Source: an uncultured Pseudohongiella sp. (GTDB taxonomy: Bacteria; Pseudomonadota; Gammaproteobacteria; Pseudomonadales; Pseudohongiellaceae). Taken from it: 64,000 nucleotides of DNA. The DNA lies in NCBI GenBank assembly GCA_965198435.1, contig OZ240664.1, positions 966,675 to 1,030,674 of the forward strand. The letters are read 5' to 3'. Positions 14,891-29,613 of this stretch are shown here, piece after piece. The first letter of the stretch is position 1. Each line of letters opens with the position of its first letter. The notes under the pieces were generated by a model that saw only the letters and a list, made by a program, of their open reading frames with translations, was not told where the DNA came from and did not search any database. A program made the translations under genes and the position numbers.

Positions 14891-15925
14891 ATGAACATTA
14901 CAGAACTTTTGGAATTCAGTGTGGAGCAGGGTGCATCGGACTTGCACATTACCGCTGGCATGCCTCCACTGATTCGCGTTGATGGTGATATTCGACGCAT
15001 CAACGTGCCTGAAATGGATCATAAGGAAGTGCACTCGTTGATTTACGAGGTTATAAACGATAAGCAGCGAAAGGACTATGAAGAATTCCTGGAGATCGAC
15101 TTCTCTTTAGAAGTTCCAAACCTGGCGCGATTTCGTGGTAATGCTTTTATTCAACATCGTGGTGCCGCAGCAGCATTTCGTACCATTCCATCGAAAGTGC
15201 TTTCAATGGAACAACTTGATATGGGCGACGTATTCCGAAAAATATCAGATATGCCTCGTGGCCTGATCTGCGTAACAGGACCAACGGGTTCGGGAAAGAG
15301 TACAACGCTTGCCGCCATGATAGATTATATTAATGACACCAGGTATGAGCACATTCTCACGATTGAGGATCCGATCGAATTTGTACACCATAGTAAAAAG
15401 TGTCTGGTGAATCAGCGTGAAGTGTATAGAGATACACATGGCTTTAATGAGGCACTGCGTTCAGCACTTCGTGAAGACCCAGATATCATTCTCGTTGGTG
15501 AGCTTCGTGACCTGGAGACGATTCGTCTTGCGCTAACGGCTGCAGAAACCGGCCACCTGGTTTTGGCCACATTACATACCACTTCAGCTGCCGAGAGTAT
15601 TGACCGTGTAATCGATGTATTTCCAGCCGCAGAAAAAAACGTGGTACGGTCCATGTTGTCGGAATCACTGCAAGCGGTAATTTCACAAACGCTAATGAAG
15701 AAACCCGGCGGTGGTCGAGTCGCAGCCCGTGAAATTATGATTGGTACGGCTGCGATTCGAAATCTGATTCGAGAAGACAAAGTGGCGCAGATGTATTCAG
15801 CTATTCAGACTGGTGCATCAGTGGGCATGCAGACTTTGGACCAGTGTTTGAAGGATTTATTGATGAAGGGCCTTATTACGAGGGAAGATGCAAGGTCCAA
15901 GGCCAAGATGCCCGAAAACTTCTAG
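14891..15925 (+). CDS. pilT: type IV pilus twitching motility ATPase PilT
   Basis: 344 aa with Walker A GPTGSGKST and the PilT signature. Divergent from yggS, as in Pseudomonas. Confidence 0.9.
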   Translation: MNITELLEFSVEQGASDLHITAGMPPLIRVDGDIRRINVPEMDHKEVHSLIYEVINDKQRKDYEEFLEIDFSLEVPNLARFRGNAFIQHRGAAAAFRTIPSKVLSMEQLDMGDVFRKISDMPRGLICVTGPTGSGKSTTLAAMIDYINDTRYEHILTIEDPIEFVHHSKKCLVNQREVYRDTHGFNEALRSALREDPDIILVGELRDLETIRLALTAAETGHLVLATLHTTSAAESIDRVIDVFPAAEKNVVRSMLSESLQAVISQTLMKKPGGGRVAAREIMIGTAAIRNLIREDKVAQMYSAIQTGASVGMQTLDQCLKDLLMKGLITREDARSKAKMPENF

Positions 15926-17827: not shown

Positions 17828-18266
17828 TTAAATCGTTGAACCAGTTTCGCAAGATAATTTGAGCTGCAATATCGTCGATGGCAGATTTTTTGTTGATGTT
17901 ACCTTCTTCAATAGCTTGCTCTATAGCTGCTTTCGAAGACAAACGTTCATCCATTCCGAAACTTGGCATGTTAAAGCGACCATTTAGACGATTCCCAAAC
18001 TTTACTGCTCTAGGCAGAAGCTCACTGTCAGAGCCATCCAGATTATAGGGCAGGCCAACCACGAATACGTCCGGCCGCCAATCCTCGATCAATTTTTCAA
18101 TCTGATCCCAATCGGGGATGCCGTCTTTTGCCTTTAATACACATATGGCCTGCGCTGTTCCCGTGATGCTTTGGCCAAATGCTACACCAATTCGCTGAGT
18201 CCCATAATCGAATGCCAGCGCAGCTATAGGTTTCGATCTATCGTTTGGAAAATTTTGCAGGCTCAT
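17817..18266 (-). CDS. ruvX: Holliday junction resolvase-like protein RuvX/YqgF
   Basis: 149 aa with the YqgF family N-terminus (ALAFDYGTQRIGVA). The C-terminal RSL-stop is encoded by MITE A7. Confidence 0.85.
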   Translation of the reverse strand: MSLQNFPNDRSKPIAALAFDYGTQRIGVAFGQSITGTAQAICVLKAKDGIPDWDQIEKLIEDWRPDVFVVGLPYNLDGSDSELLPRAVKFGNRLNGRFNMPSFGMDERLSSKAAIEQAIEEGNINKKSAIDDIAAQIILRNWFNDLRSL

Positions 18267-18290
18267 GCAGCGGACATTAGGTGTTAGATG

Positions 18291-18881
18291 CTAGGAATGT
18301 CCCGCCTCAGGCGATAGCTGGTCAAGATGGATACCCAATAGTGCGGCGGCATCTTTGGATTTTTCCGCATAGTCGTGAGAAAACAGCAGCTCTGTATTAG
18401 TCGGCACCGTCAGCCAGGCATTTTCAGTAATCTCTCGCTCCAGTTGCCCGGCCTTCCAGCCAGCGCAGCCTAGTGCTACCAAATAATTTGGTGGACCATG
18501 TCCCTGTGCGATATCTTGCAGAATAGTTTTTGACGTACAGACTGAAATATTATCTGTAATGACAATGGATGATTCCCACTGTGCTCCGGCGTCATGAATG
18601 ATGAAACCTTTATCCCGTTCTACCGGCCCGCCTGCGAGAACGTGTTGATGTTGCAGTTCCTGCTCGCTAATTGAACACTGGATATCCAATTCGTCGAAAA
18701 TATCAGTGACCTTTGCTTGCAGGGGCTTGTTGATCACAATGCCGACAGCCCCCTCTTGGTTGTGTCGCCACAAGTAGGTTACTGTATTGGCGAAATAGGG
18801 GTCTATGAGCTGTGGCATGGCTACTAGAAACTGGTTTTCTAAATAGCTTTCAAAATAGCTTTCAAATTCAAGTTTAGGCAT
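18291..18881 (-). CDS. yqgE: YqgE/AlgH family protein
   Basis: FLVAMPQLIDPYFANTVTYLWRHNQEGAVGIVINKPL is the UPF0301 signature. Confidence 0.85.
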   Translation of the reverse strand: MPKLEFESYFESYLENQFLVAMPQLIDPYFANTVTYLWRHNQEGAVGIVINKPLQAKVTDIFDELDIQCSISEQELQHQHVLAGGPVERDKGFIIHDAGAQWESSIVITDNISVCTSKTILQDIAQGHGPPNYLVALGCAGWKAGQLEREITENAWLTVPTNTELLFSHDYAEKSKDAAALLGIHLDQLSPEAGHS

Positions 18882-18895
18882 GGCGGGCTACTGAA

Positions 18896-19771
18896 TTAGT
18901 AGCTGGTGAGCTCATTCCCCTCGTGAAACCGGAATGTTCGAATGATTTCAAGTATATCAACTTCTGCCCGCATTTCATCAGGAAAGGGTTCAAAAGGAGC
19001 TGCCATATTGATGATGTTTACTGCTGCTTGATCTAAAACTGTTTGCCCGGATGACTGCAGAATTCGAACCTCTTCGATTCTACCTGTAGGCCTTAGTGCT
19101 ACAAGCATCCTCACATTGCCATAAATCTGCTGTTGGCGCGCTGCTGCGGGATAGTTTACATTACCTACAGCTTCGATGCGCCGCCGCCAGTTGTCCAAAT
19201 ACTGTGCGTCCTGACCTTTTCTTGTGGACACCGAGGAGATTGTATACTTCCTGGGTCTGCGCGCGTAGGCCTGGCGCTGGCGATCAAGTTGAACCTGCAA
19301 GCTGGCAATAGCTAGACTTAGATTATCTGGACTAACTTCATCAATGGCAGGTTGTTGATTTTCTGGTTCAGGTTTTTCCAGTTGTTGTCTTACATCTGTG
19401 TGATTGCTAATCGCAGTGACGACAGTAACGTCCCGGGCTGACTGTTCGTTAACTATTTGCGGTGCTTGCGGAATCGGAGAAACTTCTTGAATCTGGTCTG
19501 CGTTGAAATCTGACTCGAAAGGTGTCGCAGGAGCAGCGGCTTGATCAAGAGTACCGCTGCCTGTTTGATTTTCCTGTGCAAGAAAATCTGGATTGTCCGG
19601 TGCAATGTTACTTCTATATTGTGCCATTGTAATCTCAAGGGCTGGCTCACTATTTAACTCCTCAAGATAAGTAAAGCCCAATCCGAAAACAATGATAGCG
19701 TGGACGCATGCTGACAAAAAGACAGTAAAGCCGAATCGTTCTTTCGATAACTCTTCGTCTTCGATAGTCAT
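18896..19771 (-). CDS. TonB-family energy transducer
   Basis: N-terminal TM segment and a C-terminal TonB_C-like region (YPAAARQQQIYGNVRMLVAL). Its position between yqgE and gshB matches Pseudomonas tonB3. Confidence 0.7.
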   Translation of the reverse strand: MTIEDEELSKERFGFTVFLSACVHAIIVFGLGFTYLEELNSEPALEITMAQYRSNIAPDNPDFLAQENQTGSGTLDQAAAPATPFESDFNADQIQEVSPIPQAPQIVNEQSARDVTVVTAISNHTDVRQQLEKPEPENQQPAIDEVSPDNLSLAIASLQVQLDRQRQAYARRPRKYTISSVSTRKGQDAQYLDNWRRRIEAVGNVNYPAAARQQQIYGNVRMLVALRPTGRIEEVRILQSSGQTVLDQAAVNIINMAAPFEPFPDEMRAEVDILEIIRTFRFHEGNELTSY

Positions 19772-19794
19772 AGGGGTTCCTGCTGCATTGCTGC

Positions 19795-20751
19795 TTAGGC
19801 TTTTTGGGCAAGCCTTTCCTGGATACTTTCCATGAGGTCGCCTGCAATGTCAGTTCCTTTAGCGGCGTCGATTTCTCTAACGCAGGTCGGGCTTGTCACA
19901 TTGATCTCGGTTAGGTAGTCACCTATTATGTCCAGTCCGACGAAGAGTAGCCCCTTGGCCTTTAAGGTGGCGCTGACCTGACCACATATCCAACGATCTC
20001 TATCGCTCAATTCCTGTGCAATGCCTTTACCCCCAGCCGCTAGATTGCCCCGGCTTTCACCTGATGCGGGTACACGGGCGAGAGCATAATCAACTGGCTT
20101 CCCGTCGATTAGTAAAATACGTTTATCACCAGCGCTGATATCCGGCAGGTATTTCTGCGCCATGATCTGGCGCTTACCGCTTAAGGTCAGCGTTTCCAGT
20201 ATCACGCTGAGATTTGGATCATCTGGTTTTACACGAAAAATCGATGTTCCACCCATGCCATCCAGTGGTTTGTAAATCACATCTGCATGGGTGTCATGAA
20301 ATCCTTTGAGAATGGATTCTGAACTGGAAACCAGAAATTCAGGGCAACATTGCGGAAACTGCGTAGCGAACATCTTTTCATTGCAATCACGTAAGCTTTG
20401 TGGATCATTGATGATTAATGTACCGGACTTTTGTGCTTCCTCAAGCAAATATGTCGAATAGATAAAATCCATATCGAATGGCGGATCTTTCCGCATAAGA
20501 ATCACATCTAAATCGCCCAGGGCCTGATCTGATTCTTCGCCAAATCCAAACCAGTTTTCCGGGTTATCCTTTACTTGTAACTCACGCATCCTGGCTCTGC
20601 TGACACCCTGATCAGAATACAGATCGGTTTGCAGCATATACTGGATTTTCCAGCTACGTTTCTGAGCAGCCAGCAGCATCGCGAGTGTGGTGTCCTTATA
20701 AACAGCAATGGACTCAATCGGGTCCATCACTACTCCCAGTGTTACAGTCAT
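19795..20751 (-). CDS. gshB: glutathione synthetase
   Basis: 318-aa ATP-grasp protein with prokaryotic GshB motifs. Confidence 0.9.
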   Translation of the reverse strand: MTVTLGVVMDPIESIAVYKDTTLAMLLAAQKRSWKIQYMLQTDLYSDQGVSRARMRELQVKDNPENWFGFGEESDQALGDLDVILMRKDPPFDMDFIYSTYLLEEAQKSGTLIINDPQSLRDCNEKMFATQFPQCCPEFLVSSSESILKGFHDTHADVIYKPLDGMGGTSIFRVKPDDPNLSVILETLTLSGKRQIMAQKYLPDISAGDKRILLIDGKPVDYALARVPASGESRGNLAAGGKGIAQELSDRDRWICGQVSATLKAKGLLFVGLDIIGDYLTEINVTSPTCVREIDAAKGTDIAGDLMESIQERLAQKA

Positions 20752-20926
20752 TTGGTTTCTCTCGACAAATTGCAGAAGAACAGGATTTTCATTGGTTGAT
20801 GCGCGGGAAAATCATATCCCACTTTCTTCAATGAAGCGAAAATGAAGCACAGTGATCTTAGTCCGTATTCATGGAATCAGTCTATAATGGGGCTTTCTAA
20901 GCGATATACCTGATTCGGATTATCCA

Positions 20927-21436
20927 GTGCGATCGATCGGCTATACCTGGGGCATTGGCGGGGTACTGCTTTTGCTTGTTTTTGCAATATGTCGGTTGGC
21001 TCCGATGGCTTTTGCCCTGCAAGAGGTAAACCTTTCTTTTTTGCACTGGACGTCATTGATTTTCAGTGTTTGTTATATGGCCTATGCCGAGGGTTATAAA
21101 GGCTTTCATCTGGGGTTTGCGCCAAGAGTTGTATCCCGCGCAACTTACCTGTTTCAGAATCCAAGGCTGAGTCACATGTTATTGGCACCATTGTTTTGTA
21201 TGGGCTATTTCCATACAACCAGAAAGCGTCAGTTGCTATCGATTGGGCTCACCATAATGATTGTGTGTTTTATCGCCATCGCTCGACAACTACCGCAGCC
21301 TTGGCGTGGCATACTTGATGCCGGGGTAGTTGTTGGCCTGGGAATCGGCATCTCGTCTATTGGGTACTTTCTGATGCGTTCCGTATTCGACCCCGCCTAT
21401 AATCCTGTGTCAGCAGAACTGCCTGTAGATCGTTAG
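20927..21436 (+). CDS. hypothetical polytopic membrane protein
   Basis: 169 aa with 4-5 hydrophobic segments and a GTG start. It is the first gene of the glycosyltransferase island. Confidence 0.45.
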   Translation: MRSIGYTWGIGGVLLLLVFAICRLAPMAFALQEVNLSFLHWTSLIFSVCYMAYAEGYKGFHLGFAPRVVSRATYLFQNPRLSHMLLAPLFCMGYFHTTRKRQLLSIGLTIMIVCFIAIARQLPQPWRGILDAGVVVGLGIGISSIGYFLMRSVFDPAYNPVSAELPVDR

Positions 21437-21445
21437 ACATACATC

Positions 21446-22357
21446 ATGAACTCCGAGCAGATACAACTGAATACTTTTGCGATTGTTGTAACCTACAACC
21501 CCGACATTACCGCGTTGTTAAAGCTATTGGGCCAGCTAAACAAGGAAACGGACTTTATCGTAATTGACAACGGATCGCCTGAAATCGGGAACATTGCTGA
21601 ATCAGTTACTGTCTATGAACGATGCACCGAGCTTCTAAGACTTAGTGAAAACCGGGGACTCGCAAGTGCACTCAATATTGGTATCGAGAAAGCTCTGGAG
21701 CGATATGCTGATTACATATTTCTATTAGATCAAGATAGCAGCTTGTGTGATTTGTTTGTCGAAAGGATGGTCGGTGCATACATGGATGCTGAGCGATACT
21801 CTAGTAAGGGGATTGCAGCAGTTGGTCCACGCATCATTAACCCACAAACTATGCGACAAACGCCGTTTAAATTGTTCAATCATTTTGTCCTGCGTTCTGA
21901 TCAACATTATGCGCAGACTCAATCTCATTTTCTCGCTGATTTTCTTATCACTTCAGGCACATTGCTTGTGGCTAAACATGTGCGTGAAATAGGCATGATG
22001 AAAGAAAGCTATTTCATCGATAACGTTGATCTGGAGTGGTGCTTTCGGGCCAAATCTATGGCTTACGAGTTAGTGGGCACCGATGCAGCAGTTCTCTATC
22101 ATGCCATTGGCGAGCGTAGCATGAATCCATTAGTGCGTGCTGGGATAATGGCACAGCACAATCCATCCAGAACCTATTATTCCAGCAGAAATCGCACGCA
22201 CTTATACAGTCTGAGCTACTCGCCATTAGGCTGGAAAATAAGAGATCGAATTCGATTTTTTATTAAAGCGAGCTGGCTCATCCTTTCTTCGCAGGATCGT
22301 AAACAATATTGGCATAACATTCGTTCCGGGATACGTGATGCCAAATCGCTTAGTTAG
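21446..22357 (+). CDS. family 2 glycosyltransferase (rhamnosyltransferase-like)
   Basis: 303 aa with the GT2 N-terminal pattern (FAIVVTYNPD, NGS) and an LLDQDS DxD-like motif. Confidence 0.75.
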   Translation: MNSEQIQLNTFAIVVTYNPDITALLKLLGQLNKETDFIVIDNGSPEIGNIAESVTVYERCTELLRLSENRGLASALNIGIEKALERYADYIFLLDQDSSLCDLFVERMVGAYMDAERYSSKGIAAVGPRIINPQTMRQTPFKLFNHFVLRSDQHYAQTQSHFLADFLITSGTLLVAKHVREIGMMKESYFIDNVDLEWCFRAKSMAYELVGTDAAVLYHAIGERSMNPLVRAGIMAQHNPSRTYYSSRNRTHLYSLSYSPLGWKIRDRIRFFIKASWLILSSQDRKQYWHNIRSGIRDAKSLS

Positions 22358-22544
22358 GGAGCCTCTGATTAATGTTTGCGAGGCAGTTAGTGCAAGGCAA
22401 AAATCAGCGAAAAAGCGCAGTTTATAGGCCATAAATGCGCATTTTGAGCGGATTTTTAACGCAGCAATAACAACGTAGGTAATTATTAATAGGTAATTAA
22501 TAGGTAATTAATAGGTAATTAATAGGTAATTAATCAGAGGTTCC
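22358..22544 (-). mobile_element. MITE-A copy A8 (187 bp, R) with expanded subterminal repeat
   Basis: Starts directly after the TAG stop of the upstream GT. Holds a 58-bp array of the AGGTAATTAAT subterminal 11-mer. Confidence 0.9.
22477..22534. repeat. tandem array of the MITE-A subterminal 11-mer
   Basis: AGGTAATTATTAAT (14 nt) followed by 4 x AGGTAATTAAT. Canonical copies have a single unit. Confidence 0.9.
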
Positions 22545-22555
22545 TTTAGTTAAAT

Positions 22556-23488
22556 ATGACAACATCAACCCGTGTGGCAATCTTGCTCTCTACTTACAAT
22601 GGAGAAAAATTCCTTTGCGAACAACTGGATTCATTGTTAACGCAAAGCCACGACAATTTCATTTTGGTTGCGAGAGATGATGGATCGTCAGACGAAACCT
22701 GGAATATTCTGCAGGACTACCAGGGCAGATACTCGCAGAAGATTTACCTTGCGGAAGGTGACATAACTAATCTCGGTGCCAGAGATAGTTTTGCCTATCT
22801 GATAGACTATGCCTTGCGTTACAAGCAAAAACTAGAACTGGAAGATGCCTATATGTTGTTTTGTGATCAGGATGATGTATGGTTTCCGAACAAGATCGAA
22901 ACGCAACTCAACGCCATGTTGAAATGCGAAGCTGGCAACCCTGGGGCCCCGGTGCTCGTTTACAGTGATCTGGAAGTCGTATCAGAGTCTTTGAAAGTAG
23001 TCGCACCTTCGCTGGCACGTTACCAGGGATTGGAAACCCACCGAAATAGTTTCAATCAAATGGTTATCAGCAACCTGGTCACCGGTTGTACAGCCATGCT
23101 TAATGAGGCATTAGCCAGCAAGTGCCTGCCTGTTTCGAAGAATGCCATTATGCATGACTGGTGGCTGGCGCTGGTGGCATCAGCATTTGGTAAGGTGGTC
23201 TATCTTGATCAAGCGCTCGTCCACTATCGTCAACATGGCAGCAATGCGATAGGAGCGAAGGAGCACAAGCAGGCTGTTGTCACTCGACCTGGATTCTGGA
23301 GCAGGCTGTCTAGTCTGCAACCTGATGACCATCTGTTGGAGGTGGCGGTGCAGGCTAGAGATTTCGCCGATCAGTTCGGTGCTTATCTGTCGGAACATCA
23401 GCGTGCTGGTTTGAAGTTAGCAGGTAAGATGGAGGCCACAACAGGAATTTTGCAGCGCATTTATTACAGAAGAGCACGGCGCTACTAG
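22556..23488 (+). CDS. family 2 glycosyltransferase
   Basis: 310 aa. VAILLSTYNGEKFL..ARDDGSSD..FCDQDDVW is the classic GT2 pattern. Confidence 0.75.
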   Translation: MTTSTRVAILLSTYNGEKFLCEQLDSLLTQSHDNFILVARDDGSSDETWNILQDYQGRYSQKIYLAEGDITNLGARDSFAYLIDYALRYKQKLELEDAYMLFCDQDDVWFPNKIETQLNAMLKCEAGNPGAPVLVYSDLEVVSESLKVVAPSLARYQGLETHRNSFNQMVISNLVTGCTAMLNEALASKCLPVSKNAIMHDWWLALVASAFGKVVYLDQALVHYRQHGSNAIGAKEHKQAVVTRPGFWSRLSSLQPDDHLLEVAVQARDFADQFGAYLSEHQRAGLKLAGKMEATTGILQRIYYRRARRY

Positions 23489-23762
23489 GGCCTGTTCACA
23501 CTAATTGAGTGGCCTCTGCTAGAGAGGATTTTTGCGTCCAGTGAGGCAGAAAGAGTGCCTTATATAAATATATATAAACGATTGATAACAAAGCTGGGCG
23601 CAAAAATGACCCTGGCCCTTCGGGTTGCGGCTAAAGCGGCTAAAAAAACGCCACTTGTCGTTGCTCGTCGCTCATTTGGAACAACCAAACTACGTTCCTC
23701 GCGCCTCAATTCGCGCTTTTTTAGTCACAACAGAGGCCACTCAATTAGTGTGAACAGGCCCT
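23487..23762 (+). mobile_element. MITE-B copy B3 (276 bp)
   Basis: Same termini as B1 and B2. Overlaps the TAG stop of the upstream GT and ends 3 bp from the stop of the 1406-aa gene. Confidence 0.85.
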
Positions 23763-23765
23763 GGT

Positions 23766-26700
23766 TCAAGGAGCGAGCGGCTTTTCAGCTTTTCTAATTT
23801 CACTTAATCTCTCCAGGATTTGTTTGCCAATCGCGGCAGGAGAGAAATTGGTGTCAATAAAGTTTTTCGCACTATCTCCAATGCGTTTAGCGAGTTGAGG
23901 ATTATCAACCAGTTTTTTCATATACTCGCTTGCTTGTTGCACATCGGCGTCAGCCCAACGCTGTCCAGCATTGTACGGTCCGTAGTCAACTTCCAGGTTT
24001 ACTAATTCGTAGTCTACCGCCAGGCAATTATCTTCCGTCATGTAGTCCGTGTTTCCTGACCAGTTGGTTAAGATACAGGGCTTGCCGACTGACATGGCCT
24101 CAGCAGGACCTAGTCCAAATCCTTCAGATCGATGCAGTGATACATAACAATCAGTGCAGTTAATCAGGCTATCGATCTCGTTACGGCTATGGTGTCGGTC
24201 CAGAATAAAAATATTTGACCAACCTTCCAGATTCTTTTGTAATGCCGCCAGGTCTGTTTTTGCCGGGTTGTTCATTTTCAACACCAGACAAACTGACTTG
24301 TCCAAGGCAGAAAAAGCACGCTGAAATGCTTGAACCGTCGCTTTCGTATTCTTCCTTTCAGCAATGCTTCGCGTATCGTACATTGCAAGGAATACAAAAG
24401 CGGATTGTGGGATACCGAAGTTATCACGACCGATCTCACTATCTGGGCTAAGCGCTACATTGTGCCCTATGACGGTGACGGGCAGTTGGGTTTCCTTCGC
24501 TACCGCGTCTTTTACAAATTCAGATGGCACCCAAATCTCATCCAGGAACTCTAACGAACCCAGCCAGTGCTGCGGGAGCGTTTCCAATTCCCAGGCCCAG
24601 AAAGCAATATTGTAACGCGCTTGAAAAAAGTAGCTTGGAAGTTCTGAATACATCAAGGGAATAAAATCACCATTGATATGAATCAGGTTTATATCGTAAT
24701 CAGGTCGCGACGATTCAAAATCCAGCCAATCATAGTTGGTCATGCTCGCTGGATTCCCGTGCTCAAAATTGATGATACCGAAATCTATATTCGCTGCTTT
24801 TAAGGCCCTGGCATCAGCACGTGCCGCTTCTCCTAATCCCATATTGGCTCGAATATAGCCAATGAGATTTACACCGTTTCGAGGTATGAGGGGTTTATTG
24901 GAATAATCAGCCTTTAAATCTTCGGGGATTGCGGCAATGAGTTCTTTCACAGGTACGTCAAAAATGAGCGAACAGTTAACAGTGTGAAGTGATAGATTTG
25001 GGTTGTAATGTGGATCTCCACTTTCGAACAACCAGCGCCATCGTTTCCATAAATAGTTCTCATCTGCATCATTTCCTCTTGGCTCGCGGCTGATGCTTTC
25101 ATGATGGATCAATGTACAGCGGCTGGTCCAAAGATTGCGCAAGCCGTTTTTTCTCAAACGCAGGCAAAAATCTATGTCGTTGCCAACTATTTTTAGTTCC
25201 TCATCGAAACCATCTATCCCATCGAATTTCTTTCTGGACACCATCAAGCAGGCACCGGTGTTGGCGGATACTTCTCGTACCCGCTGGTCCAACTCCATGT
25301 AATGTCCGTCTTTCGGCTTTAACTTATGAAAAAGATGAAGCCCACCGCCGCCGTAGTTGATAAGGAAAATACCGGCATGTTGCAAGGCACCAGCAGGATA
25401 AAGTAGCTTACACCCAATTGCGCCTGTCTCTTTACGTTGGGACAGACTTACAAGTTCCTGCAGCCAGTCTTCCTGAATGATTTCAATGTCATCGTTCAGA
25501 AAGAGCAGATGCTCACCCTTGGCATGTTGCGCACCAATATTGTTAAGTCGGGCCCAGTTAAAGGGCTCATCGCATTCCACGATTTTGAAGTTTTGCTTGG
25601 CAAGATAGTCGAAACCATCCTGGTTTTCGCCGCGACCATTATTGAGGATTATGACTTCAAAATTCTTATAAGTAGTTAAAGTCTGCAGAGATTCGATACA
25701 GGGTTTGAGCAGGCTCAGCTTGCCGAGGGTTGGCATTATTATGGACACAAGCGGGTTTCCTTGAAGCTCCCACTTCAAAGATCGAATGCCATCCTGTTCC
25801 GACGCCTTAGCTGGCAGCGAATTACTATCGAGAAATTGCCTGATTACTTCAAACTCCTGTCGAGCATAGCCACGATTTTCAGAAAGTTCTGGCTCAGACC
25901 ACAATATATTGGGAATACGTTCGATTCGTGCTGCTTCCAGGCTTAGCCTGAGCAAGATTGCGTAACGCAGGGCGCAAAAGTTTTCCTTAGCCCAATCCAG
26001 TTGAAGAAACATCGACTGTTTTCCAAGATAAACACCGCCGACATAGTTGACCGAATAAAGCAAATCAGGAGACCAACTCCAGGTAAAAACAGGATTACTA
26101 TGATGTCCATCACTGTCGACCTGGTCATGGTCACTATAGACTAGCTGCGAACCACTCTCGAGTGCTCTCAGGTATAGCATCTGCAGCGCATAAGGCTGTA
26201 AGGTTTCACCAGCGTTCAAGGCCAGGGCATAGGATTGCTTTTCTGGATCAGGTGGTGCGTCGTCGAGGACAGTGATGCGCGACGCTAGCTTCGGGTACTT
26301 CCGTATCAGCTTTTCAGCAAACTCTCCATTCGCATTGAGTGTTACCAGATGAAATTCATCCCAGCTCTGTTGTGCCAGTGCGCTGAGGCTTTTGGTAAGT
26401 TTTTCTTTGTCTGTCCCACAGTTGAGTATGATTGTAATCGGATGCTTTGAGAGGCAGGCCAGCTTGCGCACGCTCCGGTTTTTATCCCGCGATTGTTCAG
26501 CGAAATGAAACCTGGACCAGGCATTAAACATATGGTTAGCACTAAGCTTATAAAACGTTGTCGATTCACTGACTTTGCCTGATGATTCTGTGCTAAAACT
26601 GACTTCAACCCGATGTTTACCTGCATTGAGACTGGCAAGATCAATACCCTCGTCAAAACCCGCATACATTGAGTGCTCAAGATGTCGATTCTTGCGATAA

Positions 26701-27986
26701 ACATCTGGTCGATATTTCGACGTCCTGGAAGATTTGAAGAGCAGACCATCGATATGCACATCGAAGCTGACAGGTCCCGAATCAGAAATTGCCCAACCTT
26801 GGATCAACAGCTCTTCGACACAAAGAATCTTGCCGTTGCTAAAGCTGTCCAGCTCGAATTTGATATTGGGAGAGGATGAGTTGTTCTGGTTTGCCTCGAA
26901 ACCTTGAGTAAACTTTCCTTTAAGTTTTTTTTTTGAGCCTCCAGGGAGATGTTGGCGGACCTTTCGGCTAACAAACCGCAATGGGCCAGTGATTCTCCAT
27001 GAAGTAGAATTCAGCATACGTCTCACAGCGTTGTCCAGGTCCTCGTGCAGCGCAATGAGTTTTTGATATTCATCATTTTTTAGAGCAAGCTGATTTTGCA
27101 AAGTTTCCTGGGTACGGCTTCTTTTATCAATATCACTGTTCAGCAGGATCATTTGGCGCTGTAAGTTTGAAATATCACTGTTCATCAATATCACTTGGCG
27201 CTGTAAGTTTGAAATCTCACTAAATATCTCTCCGAGCATCTGGTTGTACTCGTTCCCAGTCCAGATGCCCAACCACTTCTCAAACAATTTCGCTCTGCCA
27301 GCAGCAGTAGCTTTATCGGGTAAATATTTATCTTCATCATTGCTTGTGGCAGTGGTTGAACCTCCGCCTTGTCGATAGAAGGCTGTTGTTATGTTCAGAT
27401 GCAGAAAGTCTGTATGTCGGGCAAGTTGCAGCCAGAAATCCCAGTCTTCAAAATCGTCAAAATTTTCATCAAAACGGCAACCCTTGTTAAGAATAGAGCG
27501 GCGAAACAGCAATGAGTGAATGGCGATATAGTTGTCATGCATCAAAACTCGTCTGTCAAAATCTTGAGCAAATACTGTGTTGAGCAATTTGCCGTCTGCC
27601 GTTGTCAGTTGCGTATTTGAATAGGTCGCATCGATATCTGGATTTGATTCGAGTTCAGACAGCAGGGATGCAATGTGTTCCGATGCTATCCAGTCATCTT
27701 CATCCAAAAAAATTATGTACTCGCCTTGTGCTGCATCCAGTCCGGCATTGGCCGCTTTAGCTCGTGGCAATGGATTGCCTGGCGAAACGATTTTGCACTG
27801 AACAGGACCACTCCATGTAGATGCTTCATTTAAATCTTTGCAGGCAGCATCGACCAGAAGGAGTTCGAGATTGGGGTGGGTTTGGCAGGCGACCGATTGC
27901 AGCGCTTCCTGGAGTTCTCTGCGACCAGTAGTTCGGCAAATTATAGAAACCAGAGAGTTGGAACCGGGCACGGTATCAGTAGACAT
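23766..27986 (-). CDS. 1406-aa multi-domain glycosyltransferase (GT2 - coiled coil - GT2-like - GT2 - GT4/GT1)
   Basis: N-terminal GT2 (VSIICRTTGR, FLDEDDW). Coiled coil with the duplicated SDISNLQRQ segment and NSTSWRITGPLRF. Central GT2 (VSIIMPTLGK, FLNDDIEI). C-terminal GT4-like region (SLHRSEGFGLGPAEAMSVGKP). Confidence 0.8.
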   Translation of the reverse strand: MSTDTVPGSNSLVSIICRTTGRRELQEALQSVACQTHPNLELLLVDAACKDLNEASTWSGPVQCKIVSPGNPLPRAKAANAGLDAAQGEYIIFLDEDDWIASEHIASLLSELESNPDIDATYSNTQLTTADGKLLNTVFAQDFDRRVLMHDNYIAIHSLLFRRSILNKGCRFDENFDDFEDWDFWLQLARHTDFLHLNITTAFYRQGGGSTTATSNDEDKYLPDKATAAGRAKLFEKWLGIWTGNEYNQMLGEIFSEISNLQRQVILMNSDISNLQRQMILLNSDIDKRSRTQETLQNQLALKNDEYQKLIALHEDLDNAVRRMLNSTSWRITGPLRFVSRKVRQHLPGGSKKKLKGKFTQGFEANQNNSSSPNIKFELDSFSNGKILCVEELLIQGWAISDSGPVSFDVHIDGLLFKSSRTSKYRPDVYRKNRHLEHSMYAGFDEGIDLASLNAGKHRVEVSFSTESSGKVSESTTFYKLSANHMFNAWSRFHFAEQSRDKNRSVRKLACLSKHPITIILNCGTDKEKLTKSLSALAQQSWDEFHLVTLNANGEFAEKLIRKYPKLASRITVLDDAPPDPEKQSYALALNAGETLQPYALQMLYLRALESGSQLVYSDHDQVDSDGHHSNPVFTWSWSPDLLYSVNYVGGVYLGKQSMFLQLDWAKENFCALRYAILLRLSLEAARIERIPNILWSEPELSENRGYARQEFEVIRQFLDSNSLPAKASEQDGIRSLKWELQGNPLVSIIMPTLGKLSLLKPCIESLQTLTTYKNFEVIILNNGRGENQDGFDYLAKQNFKIVECDEPFNWARLNNIGAQHAKGEHLLFLNDDIEIIQEDWLQELVSLSQRKETGAIGCKLLYPAGALQHAGIFLINYGGGGLHLFHKLKPKDGHYMELDQRVREVSANTGACLMVSRKKFDGIDGFDEELKIVGNDIDFCLRLRKNGLRNLWTSRCTLIHHESISREPRGNDADENYLWKRWRWLFESGDPHYNPNLSLHTVNCSLIFDVPVKELIAAIPEDLKADYSNKPLIPRNGVNLIGYIRANMGLGEAARADARALKAANIDFGIINFEHGNPASMTNYDWLDFESSRPDYDINLIHINGDFIPLMYSELPSYFFQARYNIAFWAWELETLPQHWLGSLEFLDEIWVPSEFVKDAVAKETQLPVTVIGHNVALSPDSEIGRDNFGIPQSAFVFLAMYDTRSIAERKNTKATVQAFQRAFSALDKSVCLVLKMNNPAKTDLAALQKNLEGWSNIFILDRHHSRNEIDSLINCTDCYVSLHRSEGFGLGPAEAMSVGKPCILTNWSGNTDYMTEDNCLAVDYELVNLEVDYGPYNAGQRWADADVQQASEYMKKLVDNPQLAKRIGDSAKNFIDTNFSPAAIGKQILERLSEIRKAEKPLAP
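27130..27213. repeat. 2 x 42-bp tandem repeat inside the coiled-coil coding region
   Basis: Units at 27130-27171 and 27172-27213 differ at a few positions. Each encodes one 14-residue segment, giving (E/D)ISNLQRQVILMNSDISNLQRQMILLNSDI. Confidence 0.85.
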
Positions 27987-28048
27987 ACTCGCAACTGTAT
28001 TAAGATATTCAGGAGCGCAGTATATACACTTTCATCTATGGACGCAGT

Positions 28049-28774
28049 TCAGGGTTGGGTGTCAGCGAATAACTGCCGCTCTAATACAGCACCGACAACG
28101 TGACCTATGAAATCAAGAAATAGTGTGTCCAGATTGACGTTGAAGTAGTTTTCAGCATAATTGCCAAGAGCCAGTAATGCCAGCACTTTTCCATTGCTGA
28201 TCACTGGACACAGGGCCGTGGATTTAACAGATTCGGTATTATTGAACAACCAATCAACATGTTCTCCTTTCAGCGCCCCACAATGAGTACGCTTAAGTCT
28301 CAATACATCACCAAAACGGTGTTTTAGTGATGCCAATGAATCAGTTCGAACAGAATTGGCCACTTGCAAATCAGTATGCTCAATTAAAATGATTTCACAG
28401 GCATCAATGCTGTCATGACTGGATAGTTGATCAACTGCGACATTGGTAATCTCAGTAACATTCTTAGCTCTCAGAAGCGCCAGCACCAGGTTTCGGGTTG
28501 TATCGAATAGCTGGTCGTTATTACGAGCATTCTTTAATAGATTATTTAGCTTCTGCCGTGCTTCGATCTCACGTTCACGGAATATTGTTACCTGACGTTC
28601 GAGTAAAGAAATAGCATTGCCACTTGCATGGGGTAATGAAAGTTCGGCCAGCAAATCATCTTGTTGAAGAAAAAATTCGGGATGGGCTCGTAAGTAGGCG
28701 GCTACATCATCGGCATGCAGTTCATCAACACTATCAGTGTCTACTGCTTCCGCAACAGAGGTTTCATTGTTCAT
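28049..28774 (-). CDS. DUF484 (YigA-like) protein
   Basis: 241 aa. VAAYLRAHPEFFLQQDDLLAELSLPH is the typical DUF484 N-terminus. Lies downstream of dapF, as in E. coli and Pseudomonas. Confidence 0.75.
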   Translation of the reverse strand: MNNETSVAEAVDTDSVDELHADDVAAYLRAHPEFFLQQDDLLAELSLPHASGNAISLLERQVTIFREREIEARQKLNNLLKNARNNDQLFDTTRNLVLALLRAKNVTEITNVAVDQLSSHDSIDACEIILIEHTDLQVANSVRTDSLASLKHRFGDVLRLKRTHCGALKGEHVDWLFNNTESVKSTALCPVISNGKVLALLALGNYAENYFNVNLDTLFLDFIGHVVGAVLERQLFADTQP

Positions 28775-29613
28775 AATTTCAGAGTTCCTTCATACACTGT
28801 GGTAGCTGGTCCTGACATTAACACTGAGGATTCATTACCAGACCATGCTATGTTCAATGTTCCGCCCGCTAACTTGACACTTACCCGGGTTCCCAGCAGC
28901 CCCAGGGACTGGCCTGCGACGACCGCAGCACATGCACCTGTTCCGCAGGCTAAGGTTTCTCCGGTTCCGCGCTCATATACCCGCAGTTTTATCTGCTCAG
29001 GGCTGACAATCTGCATGAAGCCAACATTGACGCCTTCAGGAAAATCGGGATGCGAACCTATTGCTCCCCCGATATCTTTTACGGCTGTCTTCGCCAGGTC
29101 TTCAACGATAATGACGGCATGTGGGTTTCCCATGGATACGGTGCTGAACTCAATCGTCGTCGATTCTCCATTTAAATCAATTTGACGCTGATATGTGGTG
29201 TTCTGCATAGGAGCCGAGAAGGGTATTTTTCCCGGTTGCAGCTCTGGTGCACCCATGTCGACTGTTATATTGCCAGCCTGGTCAGTTTCCAGCATCAGTA
29301 TTCTATTGAGTGTCTTCACGGCAACAGGGTTCTTAGTGCTTAACCCTTTTTCCCTGACAAACACCGCAAAACAACGTGCGCCGTTTCCACAGTGTTCCAC
29401 TTCACTGCCATCTACATTAAAGATTCGGTAATCAAAGTCAGCCTCTGGAGAACTGGGAGGTTCAACTAGAAGTAGTTGGTCAAAGCCAATACCGAAGCGC
29501 CGATCAGCGAGTGACTTAACTCTTTCCGGATCAATGCTGACTGGCTGAGTCACACCGTCGATCACGATAAAATCGTTGCCGAGGCCATGCATTTTGGTAA
29601 AAGGAATTTCCAT
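28771..29613 (-). CDS. dapF: diaminopimelate epimerase
   Basis: FTKMHGLGNDFIVID and the two active-site Cys regions are present. I chose the ATG at 29613 over 29631. Confidence 0.9.
   Translation of the reverse strand: MEIPFTKMHGLGNDFIVIDGVTQPVSIDPERVKSLADRRFGIGFDQLLLVEPPSSPEADFDYRIFNVDGSEVEHCGNGARCFAVFVREKGLSTKNPVAVKTLNRILMLETDQAGNITVDMGAPELQPGKIPFSAPMQNTTYQRQIDLNGESTTIEFSTVSMGNPHAVIIVEDLAKTAVKDIGGAIGSHPDFPEGVNVGFMQIVSPEQIKLRVYERGTGETLACGTGACAAVVAGQSLGLLGTRVSVKLAGGTLNIAWSGNESSVLMSGPATTVYEGTLKL

Follow-up and report, generated by a model that had tools for sequence, protein, structure and literature searches.

Glycosyltransferase locus between gshB and the DUF484 gene

We analysed a window of 64,000 nucleotides (nt) from the complete 3.52-Mb chromosome of an uncultured Pseudohongiella sp. 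(Pseudohongiellaceae, Pseudomonadales; contig OZ240664.1, C1:966675-1030674 of genome G000), which holds four genes between the glutathione synthetase gene gshB and a gene of the DUF484 family. These genes encode a small membrane protein of 169 amino acids (aa; memb169), two soluble family 2 glycosyltransferases (GT2a and GT2b) and a giant multi-module glycosyltransferase (GT). Two of their three internal junctions are occupied by miniature inverted-repeat transposable elements (MITEs), copies A8 and B3 (Table 1). Gene content, gene order and domains agree with a preliminary description of the sequence, as judged from open reading frames (ORFs) and domain searches, and the coordinates likewise confirm the mobile repeats that it had placed at two of the junctions.

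The Pfam model PF00535 matches GT2a with 45.7 bits, GT2b with 55.3 bits and the giant GT with 107.7 bits (cut-off 23.3), and DxD-type motifs (LDQD, DQDD, DEDD and NDD) are present in these enzymes. None of the three contains a hydrophobic or transmembrane segment, and sequence searches of the PDB with the GTs returned generic GT matches only. Sugar-nucleotide, flippase and transporter genes are absent from the four-gene block; this bears out the earlier observation that no export or precursor genes accompany the GTs, and we agree with the preliminary description that the acceptor cannot be deduced from the locus.

Table 1. Positions of the features discussed, given in window coordinates or, outside the window, in chromosome and locus coordinates
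Feature	Position	Strand	Basis and remarks
gshB (glutathione synthetase)	19795-20751	-	Pfam GSH-S_ATP and GSH-S_N; conserved left flank
memb169, small polytopic membrane protein, 169 aa	20927-21436	+	No Pfam or NCBIfam hit; 9 nt upstream of GT2a
GT2a, soluble GT2, rhamnosyltransferase-like	21446-22357	+	PF00535, TIGR01556
MITE-A copy A8	22354-22550	.	GT2a/GT2b junction; 4.5-fold expansion of an 11-mer
Variable cassette region (GT2b and slot)	22358-28048	.	Bounded by GT2a stop codon and DUF484 stop codon
GT2b, soluble GT2, part of the variable segment	22556-23488	+	PF00535
MITE-B copy B3	23482-23769	.	Between convergent 3' ends of GT2b and giant GT
Giant multi-module GT, 1406 aa	23766-27986	-	Pfam GT2, GT2, GT1/4; fills slot downstream of DUF484
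C-terminal GT-B (GT4) module, residues ~1030-1406	23769-24899	-	Pfam, model, Foldseek
GT2 module, residues ~747-989	25020-25748	-	Pfam, model
Cryptic GT-A-like domain, residues ~483-739	25770-26540	-	Model, Foldseek; invariant Y-S-D-H-D motif; missed by Pfam
All-beta domain (beta-sandwich), residues ~375-480	26547-26864	-	Model secondary structure; no Pfam hit
Single 84-residue helix, residues 244-327, candidate coiled-coil ruler	27006-27257	-	AlphaFold model
Module 1, N-terminal GT2, residues ~10-235	27282-27959	-	Pfam; motif LDEDD
DUF484 (YigA-like)	28049-28774	-	Pfam PF04340; conserved right flank; dapF and lysA upstream
Orphan wzm (ABC2_membrane, 269 aa) and wzt (ABC_tran, 408 aa)	G000:C1:413,295-415,353; L102:11293-13354		
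400-aa tyrosine recombinase, XerL orthologue	G000:C1:2,208,301-2,209,500; L101:5302-6504	+	Outside window
Candidate dif, 30-bp palindrome	2,206,989-2,207,018; L101:3990-4019		1.3 kb upstream of recombinase gene

The left flank continues beyond gshB with tonB, yqgE/algH and ruvX, and pilT is located at 14891-15925, 5 kb from the locus. On the right, the giant GT follows DUF484 on the same strand after a spacer of 62 nt. The gap between DUF484 and the corresponding position (the slot) is mostly ~20-145 nt in relatives, and 9 nt in the relative L107. No terminator-like site was found in the 62-nt spacer. The giant GT probably shares a transcript with lysA-dapF-DUF484.

The proteins of the window were mapped onto 42 loci that surround DUF484 homologues. 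Essentially every Pseudohongiella locus with enough flank shows the order orf671-orf244-ABC<>lysA-dapF-DUF484-[slot]-GT2b-GT2a-memb169<>gshB-tonB-yqgE-ruvX; in all, this order was seen in ~35 loci of the genus. It is also found in at least three further Pseudohongiellaceae genera and in L107. In nearly all sufficiently flanked loci, memb169, GT2a and GT2b hold the same position, and only the slot varies. The gshB-side flank is kept at 69-85% aa identity across related loci, and GT2a at 55-81% across the genus, mostly above 70%. Because this gene order is family-wide, the block as a whole is not a recent island; it is a vertically inherited locus of the family. The preliminary description had called the block an island and had itself set a universal gene order against this idea. 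Checked across relatives, that order is what we found, and the island is refuted for the block as a whole. The part of the idea that stands concerns GT2b and the giant GT: together they make up a cassette that can be replaced, and its content does not follow the species tree.

In the nearest relative, L013, the flanks share 85% aa identity with the locus studied here, compared with ~40% for the giant GT and 56% for GT2b. At the nucleotide level (blastn), L013 aligns to positions 17830-22358 and 28073-29613, with only 336 nt aligned between them. Collinearity therefore ends at 22358 and resumes at 28073, which defines 22358-28048 as the replaceable cassette. Across the compared loci, the slot is either empty (4 loci) or codes for ~1050 aa, ~370+1050 aa, ~1170 aa or ~1400-1490 aa, and its proteins all consist of GT2 modules in varying combination, split or fused in different ways and in most cases ending in a GT4 module. 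When the slot states are placed on a 33-taxon tree (eight flanking proteins, concatenated), at least 10 switches are counted, with four separate origins of the 1400-aa type. GT2b is 46-74% identical to its relatives and finds its closest match in a non-sister genome. GT2b and the slot gene(s) are thus a cassette that has been repeatedly exchanged or lost among lineages, inside a conserved locus.

The slot protein of L107, another member of the family, has 1735 aa and an N-terminal LmbE/PIG-L deacetylase domain, and fusion to methyltransferase, LmbE, GT9 or WsaF modules is seen in other, distant homologues of the giant GT. Such natural fusions and splits (370+1050 versus 1400 aa; LmbE or methyltransferase add-ons) should be useful for studying how polymerase and terminator modules are assembled.

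The serotype-variable rfb locus of E. coli is held between galF and gnd. By analogy, the exchange pattern of the cassette resembles that of O-antigen and capsule loci: similar to E. coli rfb-type loci, the Pseudohongiella locus combines conserved flanks with a divergent interior, and its cassettes are incongruent with the species tree. It differs from them in its housekeeping flanks (DUF484/dapF to the right, GT2a/gshB to the left) and in a cassette of only 1-3 genes, without transporter or precursor genes. If the analogy holds, marine OM182/Pseudohongiella would possess a defined hot spot of surface-glycan diversity, with conserved adaptor enzymes and a swappable multi-module polymerase. Glycan variation of this kind is expected under pressure from phage and grazers.

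The repeats within the block, MITE-A (~147 nt, ~650 genome copies) and MITE-B (~270 nt, ~115 copies), are short, non-coding and bounded by terminal inverted repeats, and they occur in many near-identical copies, as is characteristic of MITEs. Together (~765 copies) they make up ~3.5% of the genome and are evenly spaced along the chromosome; the window holds 15 full MITE-A and 3 MITE-B copies. Neither repeat was found in the 42 related loci (~800 kb of Pseudohongiella DNA), and the expansion is a very recent, lineage-specific burst. Because the burst is specific to this genome and absent from related loci, the MITEs are uninformative on the locus, and because relatives show the same cassette diversity without them, we regard them as bystanders. 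Both internal copies fold as long hairpins (A8, -59.6 kcal/mol, z = -6.2; B3, -133.9 kcal/mol, z = -12). With A8 in place, the GT2a-GT2b spacer measures 198 nt, compared with 7-116 nt in relatives except L034 (265 nt), and the predicted hairpin of A8 may affect the expression of GT2b.

That the block nevertheless represents a horizontally acquired GT island, with MITEs marking or mediating its assembly and with xerC and pilG displaced from their usual places, is highly improbable. In its favour, the cassette of GT2b and the giant GT does behave as if exchanged horizontally, and in this genome MITE-A8 sits exactly at the left boundary of the cassette. However, besides the family-wide gene order, the composition of the block is ordinary (GC 0.43-0.49 across 21-28 kb, compared with 0.45-0.48 in the flanks), and cassette diversity is alike in relatives, all of which lack the MITEs. 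A MITE is present in 18 of the 59 inter-ORF gaps of the window, so that the probability of finding one at two or more of three junctions is ~0.22, not above chance, and coincidence is likely given this density. The borders of the block, gshB and DUF484, carry no integrase, tRNA or flanking direct repeats, no recombinase was seen among the ORFs and domain matches of the block, and its sole repeats are the internal MITEs. Finally, xerC/xerD and the pil-chp genes are missing genome-wide, as described below, and hence were not displaced.

Architecture of the giant enzyme

An AlphaFold model of residues 230-1406 was obtained from an alignment of 50 homologues, with a mean predicted local distance difference test (pLDDT) score of 83.8. 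As judged from this model together with the Pfam matches, the giant GT carries four catalytic modules, in the order GT2, cryptic GT-A, GT2 and GT4. The N-terminal GT2 (module 1) is the best conserved part among slot variants, with 35-46% identity (61% in L028), and its best PDB sequence match is PglI, an undecaprenyl-pyrophosphate-glycan glucosyltransferase (E 3.7e-14). Module 1 is followed by the long predicted helix, which includes a 42-nt tandem duplication (27129-27221), and then by a short helix with a conserved SWRxTxP motif. The spacing of the motifs that flank the long helix ranges from 73 to 150 aa among 36 homologues. Downstream of these helices, the all-beta domain possibly binds carbohydrate. 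A Pfam scan of the middle 416 residues of the protein gave no match.

The best multi-domain matches found with Foldseek are the tandem GT-A polymerases PmHS2 and K4CP, with GT4 enzymes matching at the C-terminus. The pair formed by the cryptic GT-A domain and the adjacent GT2 module superposes on K4CP (2Z86) and PmHS2 (8VH7/8VH8) over ~520-605 columns (E 1e-13 to 1e-15), at a sequence identity of only ~12%. In contrast to K4CP and PmHS2, the giant GT has two further catalytic modules; a further difference is that the products of those two enzymes are glycosaminoglycan capsules. The surroundings of two distant homologues of the giant GT also contain glycan genes. The homologue in L109 adjoins ABC2_membrane and ABC_tran genes, RmlC and two small GT2 genes, and the homologue in L110 adjoins a KpsMT/KpsD/KpsC-type set, with Poly_export and KpsC/S-type neighbours recorded.

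Candidate polysaccharide pathway and alternative roles

We propose that the locus belongs to a scattered cell-surface polysaccharide pathway that depends on an ATP-binding cassette (ABC) transporter and has a replaceable polymerase cassette. We give this reading a probability of roughly 0.6; its acceptor, its sugars and the link to Wzm/Wzt are the parts that we infer. In such a pathway, a WecA-like enzyme would make a polyprenyl-pyrophosphate-linked primer, to which GT2a and GT2b would attach the adaptor sugars, with deoxythymidine diphosphate (dTDP)-rhamnose supplied by an unlinked rmlACDB operon; GT2a would thus be the adaptor or primer transferase. The giant GT would then polymerise the repeat and possibly cap the chain and measure its length, with putative ruler and terminator roles, and an unlinked Wzm/Wzt pair would export the finished chain. 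Since GT2a, GT2b and the giant GT are soluble, we propose that they act at the cytoplasmic face.

Candidates for the remaining steps are dispersed over the chromosome. Two genes match PF00953, an MraY-like gene at 1.59 Mb and a second, WecA-type gene (346 aa) at 1.94 Mb. The rmlACDB genes lie at 489-493 kb; we considered their neighbourhood as an O-antigen cluster and rejected this, as they form a stand-alone operon. The orphan wzm and wzt genes are flanked by type II secretion genes and a TolC/HlyD/ABC type I set, with no GT nearby, and full-length Wzt orthologues are present in 52 of the 61 family genomes; one genus (g137) lacks Wzt. The ABC genes beyond lysA are not supported as the exporter; they match GldA/F/G (gliding-type ABC-2/GldG) models and not Wzm/Wzt. 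As a separate observation, a GT2 gene (324 aa) overlaps the gene of a 562-aa protein without Pfam hit ~5.5 kb downstream of the rml operon (G000:C1:498,303-500,944; L099:4303-6944), and the two may be another glycan-modifying pair.

The proposed pathway has counterparts among characterised systems. In ABC-dependent glycan assembly, polymerase modules occur in single or multi-module proteins, and a coiled-coil ruler is carried by the terminator protein (PMC11231755). The O12 (WbbB), O4 and O7 systems of Klebsiella pneumoniae (PMC11231755) are alike in having soluble multi-module GTs whose modules may share a polypeptide or be divided among several, a long helix that sets one module apart, a separate small rhamnosyltransferase-type adaptor and Wzm/Wzt in the genome. 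Consistently, the variable distribution of modules among slot proteins matches that in the Klebsiella O-polysaccharide systems (PMC11231755). The likeness to WbbB is one of architecture, and sequence similarity to the giant GT is not part of it. In contrast to the Klebsiella systems, the Pseudohongiella genes are scattered on the chromosome and not gathered in one cluster, no WaaL was detected in the genome, and no terminator chemistry (kinase, methyltransferase or 3-deoxy-D-manno-octulosonic acid (Kdo) transferase) was identified in this giant GT. The WbdA/WbdD system of E. coli O9a (PMC3482155) is similar in concept, in that a coiled coil on a catalytic module sets chain length, and the C-terminal domain of its Wzt reads the chain end, a role for which the tail of the Pseudohongiella Wzt would be the candidate. 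The O9a system differs in its enzymes, WbdA comprising GT4 mannosyltransferases and WbdD being a kinase-methyltransferase, whereas in the giant GT it is a GT2 module that carries the helix. If the proposed pathway is correct, the genes of an ABC-type polysaccharide pathway can lie entirely scattered over a genome.

Several observations weigh against this pathway. GT2a scores just over the cut-off of the rhamnosyltransferase family TIGR01556 (203.8 bits, cut-off 200.55), a marginal match, and is unlike E. coli WbbL; as it has no significant similarity to WbbL of E. coli K-12, we rejected it as a WbbL orthologue. The tail of Wzt reaches 29.9 bits against Wzt_C (PF14524), just below the cut-off of 30.4. 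Attachment to lipid A-core is unsupported because no WaaL/Wzy_C ligase was detected, a six-frame search of the genome having given no match to PF04932 at E <= 0.01. The wzm/wzt pair is 575 kb away from the GT locus and is present also in genomes with an empty slot, and the Wzm/Wzt link is therefore circumstantial. Moreover, a monomer model cannot prove a coiled coil. A comparison of the empty slot with the absence of Wzm was uninformative: of the four genomes with an empty slot, three have Wzm-like genes, and the last is an incomplete metagenome-assembled genome.

The lack of a detected WaaL would also be in keeping with rough or lipooligosaccharide (LOS)-type lipopolysaccharide (LPS), and the locus could accordingly decorate the LPS core, with the giant GT extending the outer core by a strain-specific oligosaccharide cap and making no polymer. 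Among distant homologues, some carry a fused GT9 heptosyltransferase domain or have GT9 genes around them, and the genome has waaA/C/F/G elsewhere, at 244-257 kb. We nevertheless consider core decoration improbable, as the locus is not near these waa genes, the retained wzm/wzt would be left without partner GTs, and four catalytic modules, a long helix and a tandem pair like that of PmHS2 and K4CP are typical of polymerases. It is conceivable, if doubtful, that the product is a capsule or exopolysaccharide, or that pilin or another surface protein is glycosylated, by a route other than Wzm/Wzt. One distant homologue of the giant GT does sit in a KpsMT/KpsD/KpsC-type capsule cluster, no ligase was found, and pilT is close by. 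No Poly_export, KpsC/S or oligosaccharyltransferase gene was found in the locus or close to it, but these families were not searched for in the remainder of the genome, so that only the presence of Wzm/Wzt weakens such a route.

The place of memb169 in the ABC-dependent pathway is a separate matter. The protein has about four hydrophobic segments, with segments placed at residues 3-34, 100-124 and 128-150, and belongs to a family of unnamed ~170-aa proteins (1919 homologues, none with a Pfam domain). It is found in 47 of the 301 genomes of the order Pseudomonadales, in unrelated contexts, and outside Pseudohongiellaceae its homologues have neither conserved neighbours nor an adjacent GT. Its membership in the system is doubtful because conserved neighbours are missing outside the family. 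We also considered memb169 as a GtrA-like flippase paired with GT2a and rejected this, as there is no family match and no GT neighbour outside the family. GT2a, in turn, is not GtrB/ArnC-like because it is without C-terminal transmembrane segments.

XerL-type recombinase and candidate dif site

The preliminary description stated that xerC follows DUF484 in E. coli and Pseudomonas and that pilG is divergent from gshB in Pseudomonas. This synteny is correct: xerC follows the DUF484 gene in E. coli K-12 (yigA) and in Thiopseudomonas, and in Thiopseudomonas the genes pilG-pilH-pilI-pilJ-pilK-chpA are divergent from gshB. It was also right that xerC and pilG are absent from this locus. They are not displaced neighbours, as canonical XerC/XerD and pilGHIJK-chpA are missing from the whole genome. 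E. coli XerC found no match in the genome, and PF00589 gave weak matches only; the XerD cut-off is reached in none of the 61 family genomes, and an XerD-type match is absent from 77 of the 301 genomes of the order. Queries with PilI, PilJ and PilK found nothing in the genome, PilG and PilH gave only generic receiver-domain matches, and ChpA matched through its receiver domain only. In L107, genes for a response regulator (186 aa), a 136-aa protein and a 999-aa Hpt/HATPase kinase are located between gshB and the memb169 homologue (L107:17703-21634). In Pseudomonadaceae the Pil-Chp cluster is divergent from gshB, and these genes of L107 may be what is left of it in reduced form.

The genome does encode a 400-aa tyrosine recombinase, which aligns over its full length with XerL of Aquicella lusitana (55% identity over 399 residues, E 9e-167; reference sequence from Table S3 of PMC9765430). 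In this comparison the C-terminus, in the region of the catalytic tyrosine, is conserved (...HWLRHTGISEDVK.RPREHVRDDAGH.SSAITD.YID). Across the family the recombinase is 78-95% identical. Its gene is located at the maximum of the cumulative GC skew (~2.21 Mb), that is, at the terminus. Homologues are present in 95 of the 301 genomes of the order; among the matches listed, a cross-tally by hand places them in 67 of the 77 XerD-less genomes, compared with 28 of the 224 XerD-positive ones.

A search for a dif-like motif flanking the recombinase gene by k-mer sharing with this genome failed, and the candidate dif site was found by inspecting the regions upstream of the recombinase in relatives. 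It reads TATTTCCGGTAAT-AAAG-ATTACCGGAAATT in this genome, where it is unique even with 6 mismatches allowed, and its family-spanning form is written TATTTCCGGTAAT-CTTT-ATTACCGGAAATA. Each of 19 genomes of the order has exactly one copy of the pattern; they comprise 8 of 8 Pseudohongiellaceae and 11 genomes from three other families. A reversed control of the pattern gave 0 hits. In 11 of these 19 genomes the site is located less than 5 kb upstream of the recombinase gene. Between families, CCGG is replaced by CCTG/CAGG in both arms.

On the basis of these sequence comparisons, we consider it likely that Pseudohongiellaceae and several other GTDB Pseudomonadales families without XerC/XerD resolve chromosome dimers by an XerL-type recombinase acting at a terminus-linked candidate dif. 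This group probably includes Saccharophagus degradans, which Carnoy and Roten listed as having no dif/Xer (PMC2731167). Because the lineage would use XerL instead, xerC was not displaced from the locus, and its absence beside DUF484 should not be read as displacement. Similar to the XerL/dif systems of Legionellales (PMC9765430), the one predicted here combines a 400-aa recombinase, the absence of XerC/XerD and a unique palindromic site of ~30 bp at the terminus. In contrast to them, it is found in Pseudohongiellaceae and other GTDB Pseudomonadales families, and gene and site are usually linked (<5 kb); its function here is a prediction.

The paper on XerL searched Legionellales alone and describes the recombinase as restricted to that order (PMC9765430), which our assignment, if true, contradicts. 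It would also mean that DUF484/YigA persists without XerC and that a swappable glycan polymerase follows DUF484 instead. The XerL orthologue and the dif site are a concrete candidate for dimer resolution in a large group of gammaproteobacteria without XerCD, and for genome biology this by-product of the analysis matters more than the sugar locus. A third half-site is present at 2,208,229, 72 nt before the start codon of the recombinase gene, and may point to autoregulation.

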